A stretch of 64,000 nucleotides of DNA, from IMG/VR virus record IMGVR_UViG_3300042518_001688, positions 19,409 to 83,408 of that record. One strand, given 5' to 3'. The position numbers and the translations under genes are program-made. Positions 26,045 through 51,282 of the stretch are shown piece by piece; position 1 is the stretch's first letter, and every line of letters starts with the position of its first letter. The notes beneath the pieces are model-generated. The model did no database searches. It saw nothing but the letters and a program-made list of their open reading frames with translations, and was not told the origin of the DNA. This stretch comes from a virus.

Positions 26045-26355
26045 ACTTTCCTCTTTTTCTTTTCTTGGTATCGTTTGCACCTGATTGATTCTACACTTCG
26101 TCCCGTTTCCTGTGCTGCGAAAAATGCCTCTCCTTTTTTGCCAATTCCAGCGATCGCTAACTCCACTTCCTTTTGTGAGTAATGGTTAAATGTTTTCTTG
26201 GGTTTCAACCCCAACTTCCCCATCAACCATTTCATCTGTTGATACCTGCACCCTACTTTGCGACTTAATTCCGCTATTGGGATTATTTGATGATGTGCCT
26301 TGATGTAGGTTATTTCATCTTCAGTCCAGCGACGTACATTTTCCCTGGTTCTCAT
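26041..26355 (-). CDS. HTH/Myb-like DNA-binding protein
   Basis: RRWTEDEITYI...IAELSRKVG. Confidence 0.6.
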   Translation of the reverse strand: MRTRENVRRWTEDEITYIKAHHQIIPIAELSRKVGCRYQQMKWLMGKLGLKPKKTFNHYSQKEVELAIAGIGKKGEAFFAAQETGRSVESIRCKRYQEKKKRKV

Positions 26356-26744
26356 GTCGCCACCTGGATTTTTAGTTGTATGTAATTTACCTCATATCCA
26401 TGCTCTCTTTCTAGCACTTTGAGAGCATCTTTGATGTGGTAGGACATCTGCCCAAACCATTTAGGACAAGGCGATTCTCCCATTAAGTCACAATATGAGT
26501 CATGAGCTTCCATCGCATCCAAAATACTGGTCTTAATATCAAACGCCAATCGGTTCAGTTTCTCCTTGACTCGATTTTTTGTAGTTGTACTAGAATCGTT
26601 CCACCAGATACTATTCTCAATTTCTATGTATGATTTCGATAGCGCGATCGCAGCAGTCAGATGTAATTTGATATCTGCCAATAATTCGTGTTCCACTTTG
26701 AGGTGATTATTGGCAACAACTAAAGCGGCATTTGTTATTACCAT
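26352..26744 (-). CDS. Hypothetical protein
   Basis: Coupled operon ORF. Confidence 0.55.
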   Translation of the reverse strand: MVITNAALVVANNHLKVEHELLADIKLHLTAAIALSKSYIEIENSIWWNDSSTTTKNRVKEKLNRLAFDIKTSILDAMEAHDSYCDLMGESPCPKWFGQMSYHIKDALKVLEREHGYEVNYIQLKIQVAT

Positions 26745-27016
26745 TACGCCACCTTTTCCCTGATGCTTGTTAATATCAAATCTTTAACGAACTTTTGGTG
26801 AGCGCACATTCTATATTTGTCCCCCCAATGTGACCACTCGCATTCGCATCTTTCTCTGGGATCTGGAGCGTAAGGTCTTACCGTGTATCGGTTCTCTCTA
26901 GTAACCTTTTCCTCTCCTTGGAAATGTTGACTGAGGACTACAAACTCAGGGTATCCTTGCTCATTTGTGAGCCACCCATCTAACTGTATTTTTCTTTCTT
27001 TTTTCATATTAAGCAC
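26744..27016 (-). CDS. SWIM-type zinc finger protein
   Basis: CECEWSH...MCAH (CxC-xn-CxH). Confidence 0.6.
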   Translation of the reverse strand: MLNMKKERKIQLDGWLTNEQGYPEFVVLSQHFQGEEKVTRENRYTVRPYAPDPRERCECEWSHWGDKYRMCAHQKFVKDLILTSIREKVA

Positions 27017-27104
27017 CTGCCAGCACTGAGAACAGTATATATTAATTTACGATAAAATGTAAATACTTTTTTGCAATTAACGGTAAAAGTGGTATTCTGG
27101 AAGC

Positions 27105-27761
27105 ATGAAAATATCACTACTCTCCCAAAAAGGGGGTGTCGGTAAAACCACGCTGTCAATCCACCTGTGTCACGCTCTGTCGCTCAAAGGGTTTAACCCA
27201 ATTTTGATAGACAGCGATCCTCAAGGATCTTCCTTGGACTGGTCATTAAGGAGGCAAGGGGAAAGATTGTTTCCAGTGGTTGCACTTGACCGCCCCATTA
27301 TCCATAAAGAGTTACCCAGTTTAATGAGGAGTTACAATTTTGCCGTAATTGATGGTGCGCCCAGGTTATCTAGCTTGACTCGCTCGGCAATCATGGCATC
27401 TGACCTGATTGTTATTCCTGTACAGCCCAGTCCCTTGGACGTTTGGGCGATACATGAAGTTATTGAGCTTATCAAGGAAATACCAGAGGATATCCTGAAT
27501 GAAAACCTAAAAACTGTGTTTTTGGTTTCTCGGAAAATCGTGAATACTGCGATCGCTAGAGATTTCCTGGAGGTGTTAGCTACCTACGATATTCCTATCC
27601 TCAACTCACAAATTGCTCAACGGGTTGTGTTTGCCGAAAGCCTTGCTTCAGGTAGCACGGTTTTAGAAGTAGCACCATTCACTCAAGCAGCTAATGAAAT
27701 TAGACAACTTTGTAAGGAGATATTGACGTATGGCGACGAAGAAAGTGCCAATCACGATTAG
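27105..27761 (+). CDS. parA: ParA-family partition ATPase (short, type Ib-like)
   Basis: QKGGVGKTT deviant Walker A, DSDPQGS, IDGAP, PVQPSPLD. Confidence 0.93.
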   Translation: MKISLLSQKGGVGKTTLSIHLCHALSLKGFNPILIDSDPQGSSLDWSLRRQGERLFPVVALDRPIIHKELPSLMRSYNFAVIDGAPRLSSLTRSAIMASDLIVIPVQPSPLDVWAIHEVIELIKEIPEDILNENLKTVFLVSRKIVNTAIARDFLEVLATYDIPILNSQIAQRVVFAESLASGSTVLEVAPFTQAANEIRQLCKEILTYGDEESANHD

Positions 27762-28116
27762 TCCATCGGTGGCGATGAGAAGTCAACTTAGTCAAGCTGA
27801 TGAATGGGTTAACGAAAAAGATAGTGGGATGAAGAATTTTACTTTCTTTATCCCTGCTGCAATGAAAAAGAGGTTAGATATCTTGGCGGTCAATAAAGAA
27901 GTGCCTATGAAATCGTTGATAGTTGATGCGGTGGCAGGTGATTTATCTTTGTTGGGTGAAATTTCCTCTTATCCACTACCACCAAAAACCAAGAAGATAT
28001 CTATTAACAATATTCCTGCTGATCTTCACTCTAAGCTCAAAACCTTTGCCATTGAAAGGGGTGTGAGTATGCAGGATATTCTTATTCATTTGATTCAGGA
28101 TATTTTGAAAAAATAG
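27730..28116 (+). CDS. Tandem RHH partition/centromere-binding protein
   Basis: Overlaps parA end; two RHH-like units (FTFFIPAAMKKRL..., ISINNIPADLHSKLK...SMQDIL). Confidence 0.7.
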   Translation: MATKKVPITISPSVAMRSQLSQADEWVNEKDSGMKNFTFFIPAAMKKRLDILAVNKEVPMKSLIVDAVAGDLSLLGEISSYPLPPKTKKISINNIPADLHSKLKTFAIERGVSMQDILIHLIQDILKK

Positions 28117-28145
28117 TTGCAGGTTGCGGTATTTACCGCTATACT
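28117..28145 (+). promoter_or_regulatory. Sigma70-type promoter TTGCAG-17-TATACT with palindromic operator GCGGTA-TT-TACCGC in spacer
   Basis: Direct reading. Confidence 0.65.
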
Positions 28146-28175
28146 GTAAATAGTAAACAAAAGGGCTGGCAGGTC

Positions 28176-28229
28176 ATGAATCAAGATTATATTCCGCATC
28201 GTGGTAGTGGCAGAAAGGGGGCTGAATAA
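28176..28229 (+). CDS. 17-aa PatS/PatX-like RGSGR peptide (MNQDYIPHRGSGRKGAE)
   Basis: First ORF after promoter; stop overlaps next start (TAATG); contains PHRGSGR. Confidence 0.7.
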   Translation: MNQDYIPHRGSGRKGAE

Positions 28230-28777
28230 TGAAGGGAAAGCCAATTTCATTTAGTCCTGCGATGGTGCAAGCTATCCAAGAAAATAGAAAAACACAGACC
28301 AGAAGGATAGCTAACAATCTCGGAAAACCACCTTACGAGAAAAGCGATCGCTTGTGGGTTCAGGAGAACTACCGTCTATCAAAAGACGGAGATAAATACT
28401 GGTGTGAGTATGACGACGGCGCGAAAAAGTTAGTTAATTTAAGCACGGCTGAATTAACTAAATTGAGGAAACGGAAAACGCCACACTTCAAAAAGCAACC
28501 AGGAAGATTCATGTATCGCTCTTGTAGTCGCATCTTATTGGAAGTGACAGACGTTTATAGTGAGCAATTGCAGAATATTTCTGATGAAGATGCGATCGCA
28601 GAGGGGATTGAGAAAATCAGCGAAACACAATACAGGAATTATGTAGAAACGACATATCCTTTAGTGTATCCTTTTGCTTCATTTCATAGTCTATGGCAGT
28701 CAATTTATGGTGCTAAATCTTGGCTAGATAATCCTTTTGTTTGGGTGATTAAGTTTAAGCAGTTGGAGGCGAACTAA
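28229..28777 (+). CDS. ASCH/PUA-like phage protein
   Basis: PISFSPAMVQAI..RKTQTRR, DRLWVQE, AIAEG, WLDNPFVWVIKF. Confidence 0.75.
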   Translation: MKGKPISFSPAMVQAIQENRKTQTRRIANNLGKPPYEKSDRLWVQENYRLSKDGDKYWCEYDDGAKKLVNLSTAELTKLRKRKTPHFKKQPGRFMYRSCSRILLEVTDVYSEQLQNISDEDAIAEGIEKISETQYRNYVETTYPLVYPFASFHSLWQSIYGAKSWLDNPFVWVIKFKQLEAN

Positions 28778-29037
28778 TGGAAGATATCGCTTACAAAATC
28801 GCAATGCTTGAAACTGAGGTTTTGTTTTACAAGATGATGACCGGATGCTTGGCTAAAACTTTGGCCACAGATGAAAATGATGTAGTTGACAAAGAGTTGT
28901 ACAGGCAAATTCAAGTTAATGCGTCCAATCATGTGGTTGTCTTGATAAATCAAGATTCTGGTAAGGCTCAAGATTGGGTTAACAGAAATGTTTTTGACTT
29001 TCGGACAAAGATTGATATGGAGATGAAAAATGATTGA
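28777..29037 (+). CDS. Hypothetical protein
   Basis: Translationally coupled, GGAGG RBS. Confidence 0.55.
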   Translation: MEDIAYKIAMLETEVLFYKMMTGCLAKTLATDENDVVDKELYRQIQVNASNHVVVLINQDSGKAQDWVNRNVFDFRTKIDMEMKND

Positions 29038-29341
29038 CAATCAATTAATATCTGACAACTTCCTTTTATCCCCAATGGGTAAACCAGAGACATCTGGATA
29101 TAAAGAATTTGATGACGAGTACAGAGGATGGAGGATTTGGCTTGATTGTCCCAATGGCGGAATATTGGCGGTTGATATTCTTCATTATGAACGGGGTCTG
29201 TGGTTAGGTTGCTCTACTTGTGAAAAGTTTGATTATGATGACGATGAAGGTATTGTTAATTATGCAAAAGAAATAATTGACAAAATAGAATCTTTTCTGG
29301 ATGGACTGTCTGGTCAATTATCGTTGCTTGAGGTGGTGTAA
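29030..29341 (+). CDS. Hypothetical protein
   Basis: Coupled ORF. Confidence 0.55.
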   Translation: MIDNQLISDNFLLSPMGKPETSGYKEFDDEYRGWRIWLDCPNGGILAVDILHYERGLWLGCSTCEKFDYDDDEGIVNYAKEIIDKIESFLDGLSGQLSLLEVV

Positions 29342-29854: not shown

Positions 29855-29916
29855 AAATATGCGATCGCAATTATTAAAGCGATCGCACATAAGGAGAATT
29901 ATGAAGAAACCAATAG
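29855..29916. repeat. 62-bp perfect direct repeat copy 1 (two HIP1 + RBS + first codons)
   Basis: Identical to 30167-30228. Confidence 0.92.
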
Positions 29917-30137
29917 CAATGAGACAGTATAGGTTAACTATCGTACCTTACGACAATAACGCTAGAAAAATCTGTGAGAGATTAAATGATATTTGGGGTC
30001 ATGGCGTTTTCCGTGAGTGCCGTAATGATAATGAGATATCACACCTTGGGTATCTTAAATGGGATGATTGGGAAAGTGATATCGCTAAGATTCAAAAAGA
30101 TTTTCCCGATATCAAAATCCAAGTAGAAATTGATTAG
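29901..30137 (+). CDS. Hypothetical protein
   Basis: TAAGGAG RBS. Confidence 0.55.
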   Translation: MKKPIAMRQYRLTIVPYDNNARKICERLNDIWGHGVFRECRNDNEISHLGYLKWDDWESDIAKIQKDFPDIKIQVEID

Positions 30138-30166: not shown

Positions 30167-30228
30167 AAATATGCGATCGCAATTATTAAAGCGATCGCAC
30201 ATAAGGAGAATTATGAAGAAACCAATAG
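30167..30228. repeat. 62-bp perfect direct repeat copy 2
   Basis: Identical to 29855-29916. Confidence 0.92.
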
Positions 30229-30356
30229 TCATCGTTTGTGAAGTGCCTGGTGAAGACCCAAGGGTAGTTATAAAGTTCGATGATTACCAAGAAGCCGTTA
30301 ATCATCTAGCAATGCTGAATCAAGAAACAAACACCAATCCTTATAGAATTTTCTGA
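30213..30356 (+). CDS. Hypothetical protein
   Basis: TAAGGAG RBS. Confidence 0.5.
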   Translation: MKKPIVIVCEVPGEDPRVVIKFDDYQEAVNHLAMLNQETNTNPYRIF

Positions 30357-49882: not shown

Positions 49883-50852
49883 TCGAGAGGAGAAAATAAT
49901 GCGACTAATTTCTTCTCGCAATAGAGATTTAGCTACATTTGCCCGTAAAAAAGGCAGCAGGGATAGAAAAAAACGTAAGAAGCGATCGCTCCGAGACAAC
50001 TTATTTGGTACAACCACCACTGGCAGAGTCGCTAGGGGTGCGGGTGCTTTATTGGCAACTGGAGCAACATTGAAGTATGGCAAGCCTAAAGTTTTGGCTA
50101 AAGCCGCATCTGTTAAGCGACAAGCCGAGAAAGTTGTTAACTCAACTCAACAGATAGGCAATGCTGCCCAAGATATAGGACAGGCTGCTCAAAAGATTGG
50201 CAATGTCGTCGAGAAAGTCGGAAACGTGGTTGACGACATTAGAAATATTCCAGTCAATGTTAAACAAAAATTCCAGTCAATGTTAGCACCAACTCGTAAA
50301 GCTATAAAACAACTTAGTCCATCTCCTGTTGTTCCAGATCCTCCCAATTCATCACCCGTATATAACGGATACGACAGCCTAGAAGATTATGTGAAAAACA
50401 GAAAACGCAGACGTTTTAATAACGGAAATCCTATTGCTAAGTTTGCTCGTAAAAAAGGTAGCAAAGATAAAAAGAAAAGAAAGCGATCGCTCACTGACAA
50501 CTTATTTGGTACGACAGCTACGGGTCGAGTAGTGCGTGTGGCTGGATTGGCTGCTGGATTAGGTGGACTTCGTTATGGAGGTGCTGCATTAGGAGAAATT
50601 GGAAAAGCCAGAGAGATGTTGAAAAAAGCTGGTAAATCTGCGCCTTTGGTTAAGGATGGGCAAAGAGCATATATGAAAGATGCCTTAAAATTAGACGCTC
50701 CTGCTGCTGCTAGAGAAAGATTTGCTATGGATGTGGCTAAATTAACCAGAAATAGAGGTAAATACGCTGTCGCTAAAATATCCAGGGATATACGTAGACT
50801 CGGTATGGATCTTAGAGCAAGAGATATTTCTATGAAGACAAGGAGAGAATGA
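49875..50852 (+). CDS. AxF-KDKKKRK family protein, two modules
   Basis: LATF-ARKKGSRDRKKRK and internal IAKF-ARKKGSKDKKKRK. Confidence 0.75.
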   Translation: MFSREEKIMRLISSRNRDLATFARKKGSRDRKKRKKRSLRDNLFGTTTTGRVARGAGALLATGATLKYGKPKVLAKAASVKRQAEKVVNSTQQIGNAAQDIGQAAQKIGNVVEKVGNVVDDIRNIPVNVKQKFQSMLAPTRKAIKQLSPSPVVPDPPNSSPVYNGYDSLEDYVKNRKRRRFNNGNPIAKFARKKGSKDKKKRKRSLTDNLFGTTATGRVVRVAGLAAGLGGLRYGGAALGEIGKAREMLKKAGKSAPLVKDGQRAYMKDALKLDAPAAARERFAMDVAKLTRNRGKYAVAKISRDIRRLGMDLRARDISMKTRRE

Positions 50853-51282
50853 TGAAATCACTAAATAGAATGATGGCTAAATTTGGCAGGGGTAAGGACA
50901 AGAAACCCCGTAAAAAAAAAGAAACCTAGCTGATGTGGTTGGTTGGGATACATACAACAAGAACCCCAGTAAGTTCACGCCGTTAGATTTGGGATTAAGT
51001 GTAGTCCCTATAGCTGCTCTTGGAGCAAGTGTTGGAACAGATAGAGCGCAAGCAAAACTGATTAAAATTCGCAAAGATTTAGATGCTACAGACATACCAG
51101 CTATTCGAGAGGCAATTAAGTCAGATCCAGATAGGGCTGTTAAAGTTGCAAGAAAAATTGCCGCACCAGGGAAGACCATTGGTAAGTACGCATTAGGTGG
51201 TGCAGCCATAGGGGCTGGTATATATGGGGGTGAATTATTGGCTAGACGTGCATGGAAGAGATTTAAAAACAGGAATAAGTGA
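50849..51282 (+). pseudogene. AxF-KDKKKRK family member split by frameshift at A9 run (50912-50920)
   Basis: MMKSLNRMMAKF-GRGKDKKPRKKK then continues in the -1 frame into ORF 50935-51282. Confidence 0.7.

Follow-up and report, generated by a model that had tools for sequence, protein, structure and literature searches.

A phage-borne 17-codon open reading frame with a PatX-like HRGSGR motif as a candidate source of a HetR-inhibitory peptide

Introduction

In textbooks, HetR and the RGSGR peptides illustrate how a Turing-type activator-inhibitor system works in bacteria, and heterocyst frequency sets the amount of new nitrogen that enters a bloom. Could a virus take part in this system by encoding such a peptide of its own? 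The question is raised by an open reading frame (ORF) of 17 codons and a stop at 28176..28229 (+) of the window, by which is meant the whole stretch of 64,000 nucleotides analyzed here, corresponding to bases 19409-83408 of an 83,408-bp IMG/VR virus record with a CheckV completeness of 71%. The product of this mini-ORF, MNQDYIPHRGSGRKGAE, carries the hexapeptide HRGSGR. Judged from its sequence, and with a probability of about one half, the mini-ORF may be a viral mini-gene for a signal-less, PatX-type pre-peptide that would inhibit HetR.

A literature search returned no report of a phage-encoded RGSGR peptide within its coverage, outside which lie most subscription journals and supplements. 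Neither patS nor hetR appears in the Cr-LKS3 paper or in the CL131 nitrogen-flow paper.

A single RGSGR motif in an intergenic mini-ORF

The mini-ORF runs from an ATG at 28176-28178 to a TAA at 28227-28229, lies between genes and is read from the same strand as both of its neighbors. The final A of its stop codon doubles as the first base of the ATG of a 182-amino acid (aa) ORF at 28229-28777, giving the junction TAATG. A short RGSGR-encoding ORF coupled in this way had been predicted here, and direct reading of the sequence confirms it. The codons for HRGSGR, a hexapeptide of the PatX6 type, occupy 28197..28214 (+). Within the product, which starts MNQDYIP and has no hydrophobic segment among its 17 residues, RGSGR is preceded by Pro-His and followed by the tail KGAE.

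Both the ORF and the motif are observed directly, and so is the rarity of the motif. RG[ST]GR occurs once in the six frames of the whole 83,408-bp record. When that record was subjected to 400 Markov shuffles, the mean number of occurrences was 0.2475 for RG[ST]GR in any of the six frames, 0.1375 for RGSGR and 0.0125 for [HE]RG[ST]GR; for RG[ST]GR within an ATG-initiated ORF of at most 40 codons it was 0.0425. A more local control, in which shuffling was confined to the 35 nt that separate the ATG from the ribosome site of the next gene, produced RG[ST]GR in frame in 3 of 200,000 trials (1.5e-5). The motif is far above chance for this genome.

Likeness to PatX, PatS and HetN

The residues that flank the motif offer a second line of evidence. 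A search of NCBIfam with the mini-ORF product gave the PatX equivalog NF047413 as its sole match (18.6 bits, E 0.0024); the aligned residues, 13 out of 17 (NQDYIPHRGSGRK), occupy profile positions 55-67 of 69, and positions 1-54 are left unmatched. Across searches the PatX scores came to 18.2, 18.6 and 16.9 bits, all below the curated cut-off of 30 bits. Over the whole record the PatX model matches the place of the mini-ORF alone, and in five other phage records, four of them containing RG[ST]GR, it finds nothing at E<=1. Since the model is silent on these other phages, it is the flanks, and not the pentapeptide alone, that are PatX-like. Two to three positions of the model also come after the motif, which makes a short tail usual in a PatX. 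The PatS model, NF047415, gave no match to the mini-ORF at E<=10.

With PatX itself (Asl2332 of Nostoc/Anabaena PCC 7120), the mini-ORF product shares H-R-G-[S/T]-G-R near the C-terminus, a proline before it and a short tail after it. The two differ in size and organization: PatX extends over about 69 profile positions and has a Sec signal peptide and a proline-rich body, whereas the 17 residues of the mini-ORF include neither feature, so that export and cleavage by PatP would be inapplicable to it. The mini-ORF is, moreover, borne by a phage, is not linked to hetR and has no DIF1 promoter motif nearby. PatS of PCC 7120 shares with it a tiny cytoplasmic primary product of 17 codons with RGSGR, presumably trimmed in the cytoplasm; the PatS family is defined by a primary product of 13-17 residues, a range that includes the 17 codons found here. 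In PatS, however, the motif is C-terminal and follows Asp-Glu, whereas the mini-ORF has His before the motif and four residues after it, and the N-terminal halves are unrelated. The third comparison is with HetN, whose RGSGR is likewise internal, meaning that an active peptide needs release at both ends. HetN is a full-size, short-chain dehydrogenase-like protein with an internal ERGSGR, and no such domain is present in the mini-ORF.

Taken together, the mini-ORF product resembles the final 17 residues of a PatX from which signal peptide and body are missing, and no donor can be identified for it; by the PatS and PatX families' own criteria it would be placed outside both. The original prediction, of a phage-encoded mimic of PatS and PatX, is supported in part. 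The motif is above chance, PatX is the only family matched, and the phage and its cyanobacterial host are as proposed, while the product has neither the C-terminal motif of a PatS nor the Sec signal of a PatX.

A phage in a HIP1-rich cyanobacterium

That the record belongs to a phage, as first suggested, is borne out by its genes, which are those of a tailed phage: it encodes a ribonucleotide reductase, a DnaB helicase, a sliding clamp, a dCTP deaminase, ThyX, a head protease, a major head protein and a baseplate protein. The host can be approached through the HIP1 octamer GCGATCGC, of which the whole record holds 139 copies against 0.38 expected, while three control palindromes have 0 copies. 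For a phage genome, such a count points strongly to the type of host, and it marks that host, by sequence signature, as a HIP1-rich cyanobacterium. The closest relatives of the 182-aa protein are 69-79% identical, and two of them are NCBI proteins named from Dolichospermum metagenome-assembled genomes, so the host genus is probably Dolichospermum. The cyanobacterial host put forward at the outset agrees with both lines of evidence. The stretch occurs in 20 sequencing runs from 12 studies, all of them of lake, lagoon or freshwater DNA.

Anabaena sp. 90, a planktonic relative, is described as having neither patS nor hetN and one ORF that ends in RGSGR, and the same is reported for C. raciborskii CS-505 (PMC3542288).

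Parallel motifs in other cyanophages

For both the ribonucleotide reductase and the dCTP deaminase, the nearest relatives (60% identity) are those of the Cylindrospermopsis phages CrV-01T (MH636380.1) and Cr-LKS4 (OQ625504.1), which share no other gene with the phage of this record at E<=1e-5. Both carry an unannotated 18-codon ORF, MIKISQYQ(S/N)QEIERGSGR, whose TAA directly abuts the ATG of the next gene (gp070 in CrV, g73 in Cr-LKS4). It lies at L006:24741-24797 (-) and L007:1470-1484 (+) of MH636380.1, being present in both copies of a long repeat in CrV, and at L009:21785-21841 (-) of OQ625504.1. From shuffles of the CrV genome, the expected number of RG[ST]GR motifs with a stop after them is 0.025 per genome. 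Like the mini-ORF, it is an intergenic, co-directional phage ORF with X-RGSGR and a stop touching the next ATG; it differs in ending exactly at ERGSGR-stop, as PatS does, and in preceding a gene of another family (gp070). This PatS-like ORF is found in phages whose host species is reported to be without patS.

A third phage, CL131 of Aphanizomenon (MG209611.1), has three RG[ST]GR motifs. One is the HRGSGR of gp091 (L024:517-915, minus strand), a protein that begins MRTKSHRGSGRRKM. Another stands near the end of gp103 (L025:557-994, minus strand), which closes with CDERGSGRDKIPQFVAV, that is, CDERGSGR and ten further residues, and which the PatS model scores at 16.3 bits. The third, antisense to gp132, was set aside as chance. 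The C-termini of CL131 gp091 and CrV gp070 are similar (12 of 31 residues identical, E 6e-08 for the pair), so that two divergent phages place an RGSGR leader before related genes. Neither gp091 nor gp070 has a relative in the phage of this window.

The Microcoleus phage My-WqHQDG (OR578706.1) adds one antisense RG[ST]GR and one intergenic ORF just after its ribonucleotide reductase gene (L054:352-504, minus strand), which ends in HKGVVPERGSGR and a stop, and hence in ERGSGR-stop. The latter appears ambiguous and does not lend firm support: the only ATG is upstream of a GC-rich hairpin, and the start is doubtful. Among the cyanophages of unicellular hosts (S-EIVl, PSS2, S-CBS4 and S-CBS2), four RG[ST]GR matches were found, all in the GC-richer S-CBS4 and S-CBS2. 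Each of these falls within an annotated gene, either off-frame or on the antisense strand, and in two the sequence is HRG[ST]GR. The contrast between phages of filamentous and of unicellular hosts, in a small sample of nine records against four, is suggestive but no proof.

The presence of [H/E]RGSGR in small ORFs or gene ends of unrelated Cylindrospermopsis and Aphanizomenon phages lends weight to the original prediction. A broader proposal may be framed from it, tentatively and at a little under even odds: viruses of bloom-forming heterocystous cyanobacteria (Dolichospermum, Aphanizomenon, Cylindrospermopsis) may have repeatedly acquired tiny genes or leaders that deliver a HetR-inhibitory (H/E)RGSGR, in unrelated lineages, and the mini-ORF would be the signal-less "PatX tail" version.

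How a trimmed peptide could act on HetR

The hexapeptides PatS6 (ERGSGR) and PatX6 (HRGTGR) bind HetR and release it from DNA; for PatX6 the dissociation constant is 88 nM, and DNA binding is abolished (PMC12756182). The hexapeptide sits as a beta strand on the HetR hood domain, with its free N-terminal amine held by Glu254 and Asp256 and its C-terminal carboxylate faced by Arg223, while the side chain of the first residue is immaterial; peptides of at least seven residues have lower affinity, and XRGSGR, with any X, is regarded as the probable mature peptide (PMC4649674). In vivo, PatS-17 prevents differentiation even when it has not been processed (PMC4133259). Since the motif is internal in HetN and in PatX, host cells are able to release it at both ends.

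On these grounds a chain of steps may be proposed. The mini-ORF would be transcribed from a weak promoter of its own or by read-through from the partition (par) genes upstream, and translated from a ribosome site of moderate strength, immediately before the next gene and in coupling with it. Trimming by host peptidases, of seven residues at the N-terminus and four at the tail, would then leave HRGSGR or a slightly longer form; the trimmed forms to consider are MNQDYIPHRGSGR, HRGSGRKGAE and HRGSGR. Once released, HRGSGR could dock on the hood domain of the host HetR and stop its binding to DNA. In that event a cell that is infected or lysogenic would be unable to commit to becoming a non-dividing heterocyst, and the same might hold, through septal junctions, for the cells next to it. 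The phage might benefit by keeping cells vegetative, if that is the purpose.

Were this so, the phage would be the first seen to steer how the cells of a multicellular bacterium differentiate: a virus would control a bacterial developmental morphogen and decide cell fate in its multicellular host. It would act in host lineages that, as far as described, themselves have neither patS nor hetN (Anabaena sp. 90, C. raciborskii CS-505), and this would be relevant to nitrogen fixation by toxic lake cyanobacteria and to the dynamics of their blooms. The idea is directly testable, with a peptide of only 17 residues and with existing assays: isothermal titration calorimetry with HetR, electrophoretic mobility shift, the hetR R223W mutant and hetL suppression. 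Three cultured phage-host pairs with related motifs are also at hand, namely CrV-01T and Cr-LKS4 on Cylindrospermopsis and CL131 on Aphanizomenon.

A real peptide could also serve another purpose, which we regard as improbable. It might be a diffusible signal that passes between phage-carrying cells along a filament, a decoy for the handling of PatX or PatS or for HetL, or an agent in HetR-dependent formation of akinetes or fragmentation of filaments. The partition genes favor such a role: with them the phage may be maintained as a plasmid prophage, and permanent suppression of nitrogen fixation would harm a lysogen. HetR and PatX are, furthermore, older than heterocysts and occur also in non-heterocystous filaments (PMC12756182; PMC7761841). 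Against it, a search of the record revealed no gene for a receptor, for an exporter or for a HetL-like pentapeptide-repeat protein, and the sequence does not distinguish among these roles. HetR_C has no match in the virus record.

Translation signals, coupling and the weight of contrary evidence

The HetR-inhibitory reading presumes that the mini-ORF is translated for its peptide. Ten nt ahead of its ATG stands the Shine-Dalgarno-like AAAGGG (28160..28165, plus strand), whose pairing with the 16S tail motif amounts to -5.5 kcal/mol, a value equaled or bettered at 31% of 104 crude genes and at 14% of 400 random sites; expressed as a rank, the ribosome-site score beats that of 69% of the phage's crude genes (n=104). 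The downstream gene has the strong Shine-Dalgarno AAAGGGGG at 28214..28221 (+), with a duplex energy of -11.5 kcal/mol that is reached by 3% of crude genes and by 0 of 400 random sites. As AAAGGGGG encodes the K-G of the peptide tail, KGAE is constrained by the ribosome site of the next gene. A -1 frameshift from the mini-ORF into the frame of that gene was considered and ruled out by a TGA at 28223-25 in that frame.

These same features admit a purely mechanical explanation, in which the mini-ORF is a translated upstream ORF that lets ribosomes restart at TAATG or tunes the downstream gene, with the peptide discarded and RGSGR a coincidence. We consider this unlikely. Its stop overlaps the next start, and its last four codons are the strong ribosome site of the next gene. 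Coupled small ORFs are common in the phage: of 113 crude genes, 11 are preceded by an ATG-initiated ORF of 8-40 codons whose end is no more than 10 nt from the start of the gene, and six of these ORFs are wholly intergenic. The architecture of the mini-ORF is by itself ordinary, and the signal is the motif, not the ORF. It is here that a mechanical role fits less well, given how improbable the motif is both locally and per record in the shuffles described above, that its flanks score on the PatX model, and that three further phages with heterocystous hosts have it as well, in small ORFs or at gene ends. Nor does the leader RNA fold beyond its shuffles (z -0.22), leaving no structure that would need opening by ribosomes. 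As an observation on its own, another coupled ORF of 26 codons, MMKSLNRMMAKFGRGKDKKPRKKKET, lies at 50849-50929, directly before the gene at 50935.

Several points weigh against a HetR-inhibitory peptide, beginning with the frequency of such coupled ORFs and with the fact that the KGAE tail is simply the ribosome site of the next gene. The small per-genome probability of the motif must be weighed against the very many windows that were scanned. Chance matches do occur, as the GC-rich S-CBS2, with an off-frame HRGTGR and an off-frame HRGSGR, illustrates, and four other phages of heterocystous hosts (Dfl-JY23, A-1(L), N1 and CHP58) have no RG[ST]GR. With regard to mechanism, the grip of HetR on a free N-terminal amine and a C-terminal carboxylate means that the 17-mer needs trimming at both ends; being cytoplasmic and carrying a four-residue tail, it would depend on trimming in the cytoplasm. 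The signal peptide of PatX is required for activity, and PatX lacking it showed no binding to HetR in a two-hybrid assay and no inhibition of differentiation in Nostoc (PMC12756182). With regard to origin, a search with the 57-aa stop-to-stop translation yielded no candidate, in that no protein of 31-100 aa among 5.8 billion shares three 5-residue words with the region; there is no known PatX with these exact flanks, and hence no sign of recent capture from a host gene. With regard to expression, no RNA run is found among the runs listed as containing the stretch, which is also in keeping with a mechanical role, and there is no DIF1 motif (TCCGGA) near the mini-ORF, the sole TCCGGA in the window being at 733-738. 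DIF1 marks the promoters of PatS and PatX, which are induced in prospective heterocysts (PMC7761841).

The remaining points on this side concern the junction itself. Two of the five close relatives of the 182-aa gene, P0004 and P0006, have a different in-frame upstream sequence (MNDLLSHFDISVVPIKPIS...) without RGSGR, which by codon logic cannot encode RGSGR in any forward frame, and one X17 contig diverges from the window upstream of 28255. The junction between the mini-ORF and the 182-aa gene is therefore not fixed in the family, and the upstream sequences of P0004 and P0006 again agree with a mechanical role.

Other contigs continue through the locus. An X17 contig, with 64 differences over 26057-28515, and an X18 contig, with 92 over 26854-28779, both span the mini-ORF without a reported joint, and among the differences listed for them none falls between 28024 and 28379, a point that carries no weight either way for conservation. 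Relatives of the 182-aa gene occur on contigs of up to 129,682 bp. No confirmed relative was obtained, at the level of DNA, from profile and protein searches with the 182-aa protein, with an alignment of six relatives (against viral, genome and metagenome contigs) or with ParA. Blastn of the region found no match among phages and only parA fragments among plasmids.

Three pattern searches gave candidates that were rejected. A degenerate pattern for the invariant QPGRFMYxSC had 0, 0 and 1 match, the one being an unrelated Bacillus contig. The degenerate IPHRGSGRK pattern matched twice in IMG/VR, both times by chance (L003 reads IPHRGRGRK, and L004 is off-frame in a GC-rich gene), and the single match to ERGSGR-TAA-ATG reads ERGSGS off-frame.

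The leader and its putative promoter

Upstream of the ribosome site, a putative promoter, TTGCAG-17-TATACT, can be drawn at 28117..28145 (+), with its hexamers at 28117-22 and 28140-45 and a spacer of 17 nt. The -10 element matches the consensus at five of six positions, the -35 element at only three of six (relative to TTGACA). Inside the spacer, at 28126..28139, lies the perfect palindrome GCGGTA-TT-TACCGC (GCGGTATTTACCGC), a possible operator. It is the sole exact copy in the window, in which sites with up to two mismatches number three against 0.74 expected. The hexamers, spacer and palindrome are thus present as the original prediction described them; the strength implied for the promoter is not, in view of its -35 element and of a promoter consensus scan that did not list the site. 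The scan found no terminator-like site between the upstream gene and the mini-ORF, so read-through from the par genes is equally possible. By eye, no NtcA-like or HetR-like site was seen.

A second form of chance can be weighed on this evidence. The stretch that follows the pair of genes for ParA and its ribbon-helix-helix partner may go untranslated, as a 5' leader, a promoter or a partition-site region, with its ATG unused and its motif a chance product of G-rich DNA beside a ribosome site. The weak -35 element and the uncalled promoter are in accord with this account, as are the palindrome together with the repeated TGGCAGGT-like words that flank the par genes, and the off-frame RG[ST]GR motifs, HRGSGR included, of other phages. 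It is opposed by the ribosome-site score of the ATG, which is above that of most genes, by the control for local composition, which still gives 1.5e-5, and by the uniqueness of the palindrome, which is not what an iterated centromere would show. We judge an untranslated leader still less probable than a mechanical upstream ORF; jointly, as a chance motif in a coupling ORF or a leader, the two form the main rival to a HetR-inhibitory peptide, though one less likely than not.

The TGGCAGGT-like words are 9-mers found at 27015-27023, 27931-27939, 28116-28124 and 28166-28174, in both orientations, flanking or within the par genes. One of them overlaps the putative -35 element and another sits just before the ATG of the mini-ORF. 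They may be protein-binding sites or may be due to chance.

Neighboring genes

The genes around the mini-ORF are of recognizable kinds. The gene at 27105..27761 (+) encodes a ParA-type partition ATPase (Pfam AAA_31 E 2.4e-23, CbiA 8e-16; phrog_164, ParA-like, E 1.1e-45). It is followed at 27730..28116 (+) by a gene for a ribbon-helix-helix protein, Arc/CopG-like and a probable partner of ParA (phrog_582, Arc-like repressor, E 1.1e-08; the Pfam ribbon-helix-helix match is weak and below cut-off), which ends one base ahead of the putative promoter. Downstream, the 182-aa gene (28229..28777, plus strand) is P7 Upf86.8-like or ASCH-like (phrog_874, E 1.2e-46). Aligned by tblastn across 100% of the query, it shares 35.7% identity with upf86.8 of phage P7, and one of its relatives carries the NCBI name ASCH domain-containing protein.

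Two rearrangements were seen beyond this gene. A high-depth X18 contig joins 28779 to 29303, dropping an 86-aa ORF, and P0004 is a corresponding fusion, in which the 182-aa gene is joined to a homologue of the ORF of 103 aa at 29030-29341, so that the module is mosaic among relatives. A little further on, the ORFs at 29859-30137 and 30171-30356 share their first 19 residues (MRSQLLKRSHIRRIMKKPI) and then diverge, which looks like a duplicated gene head.

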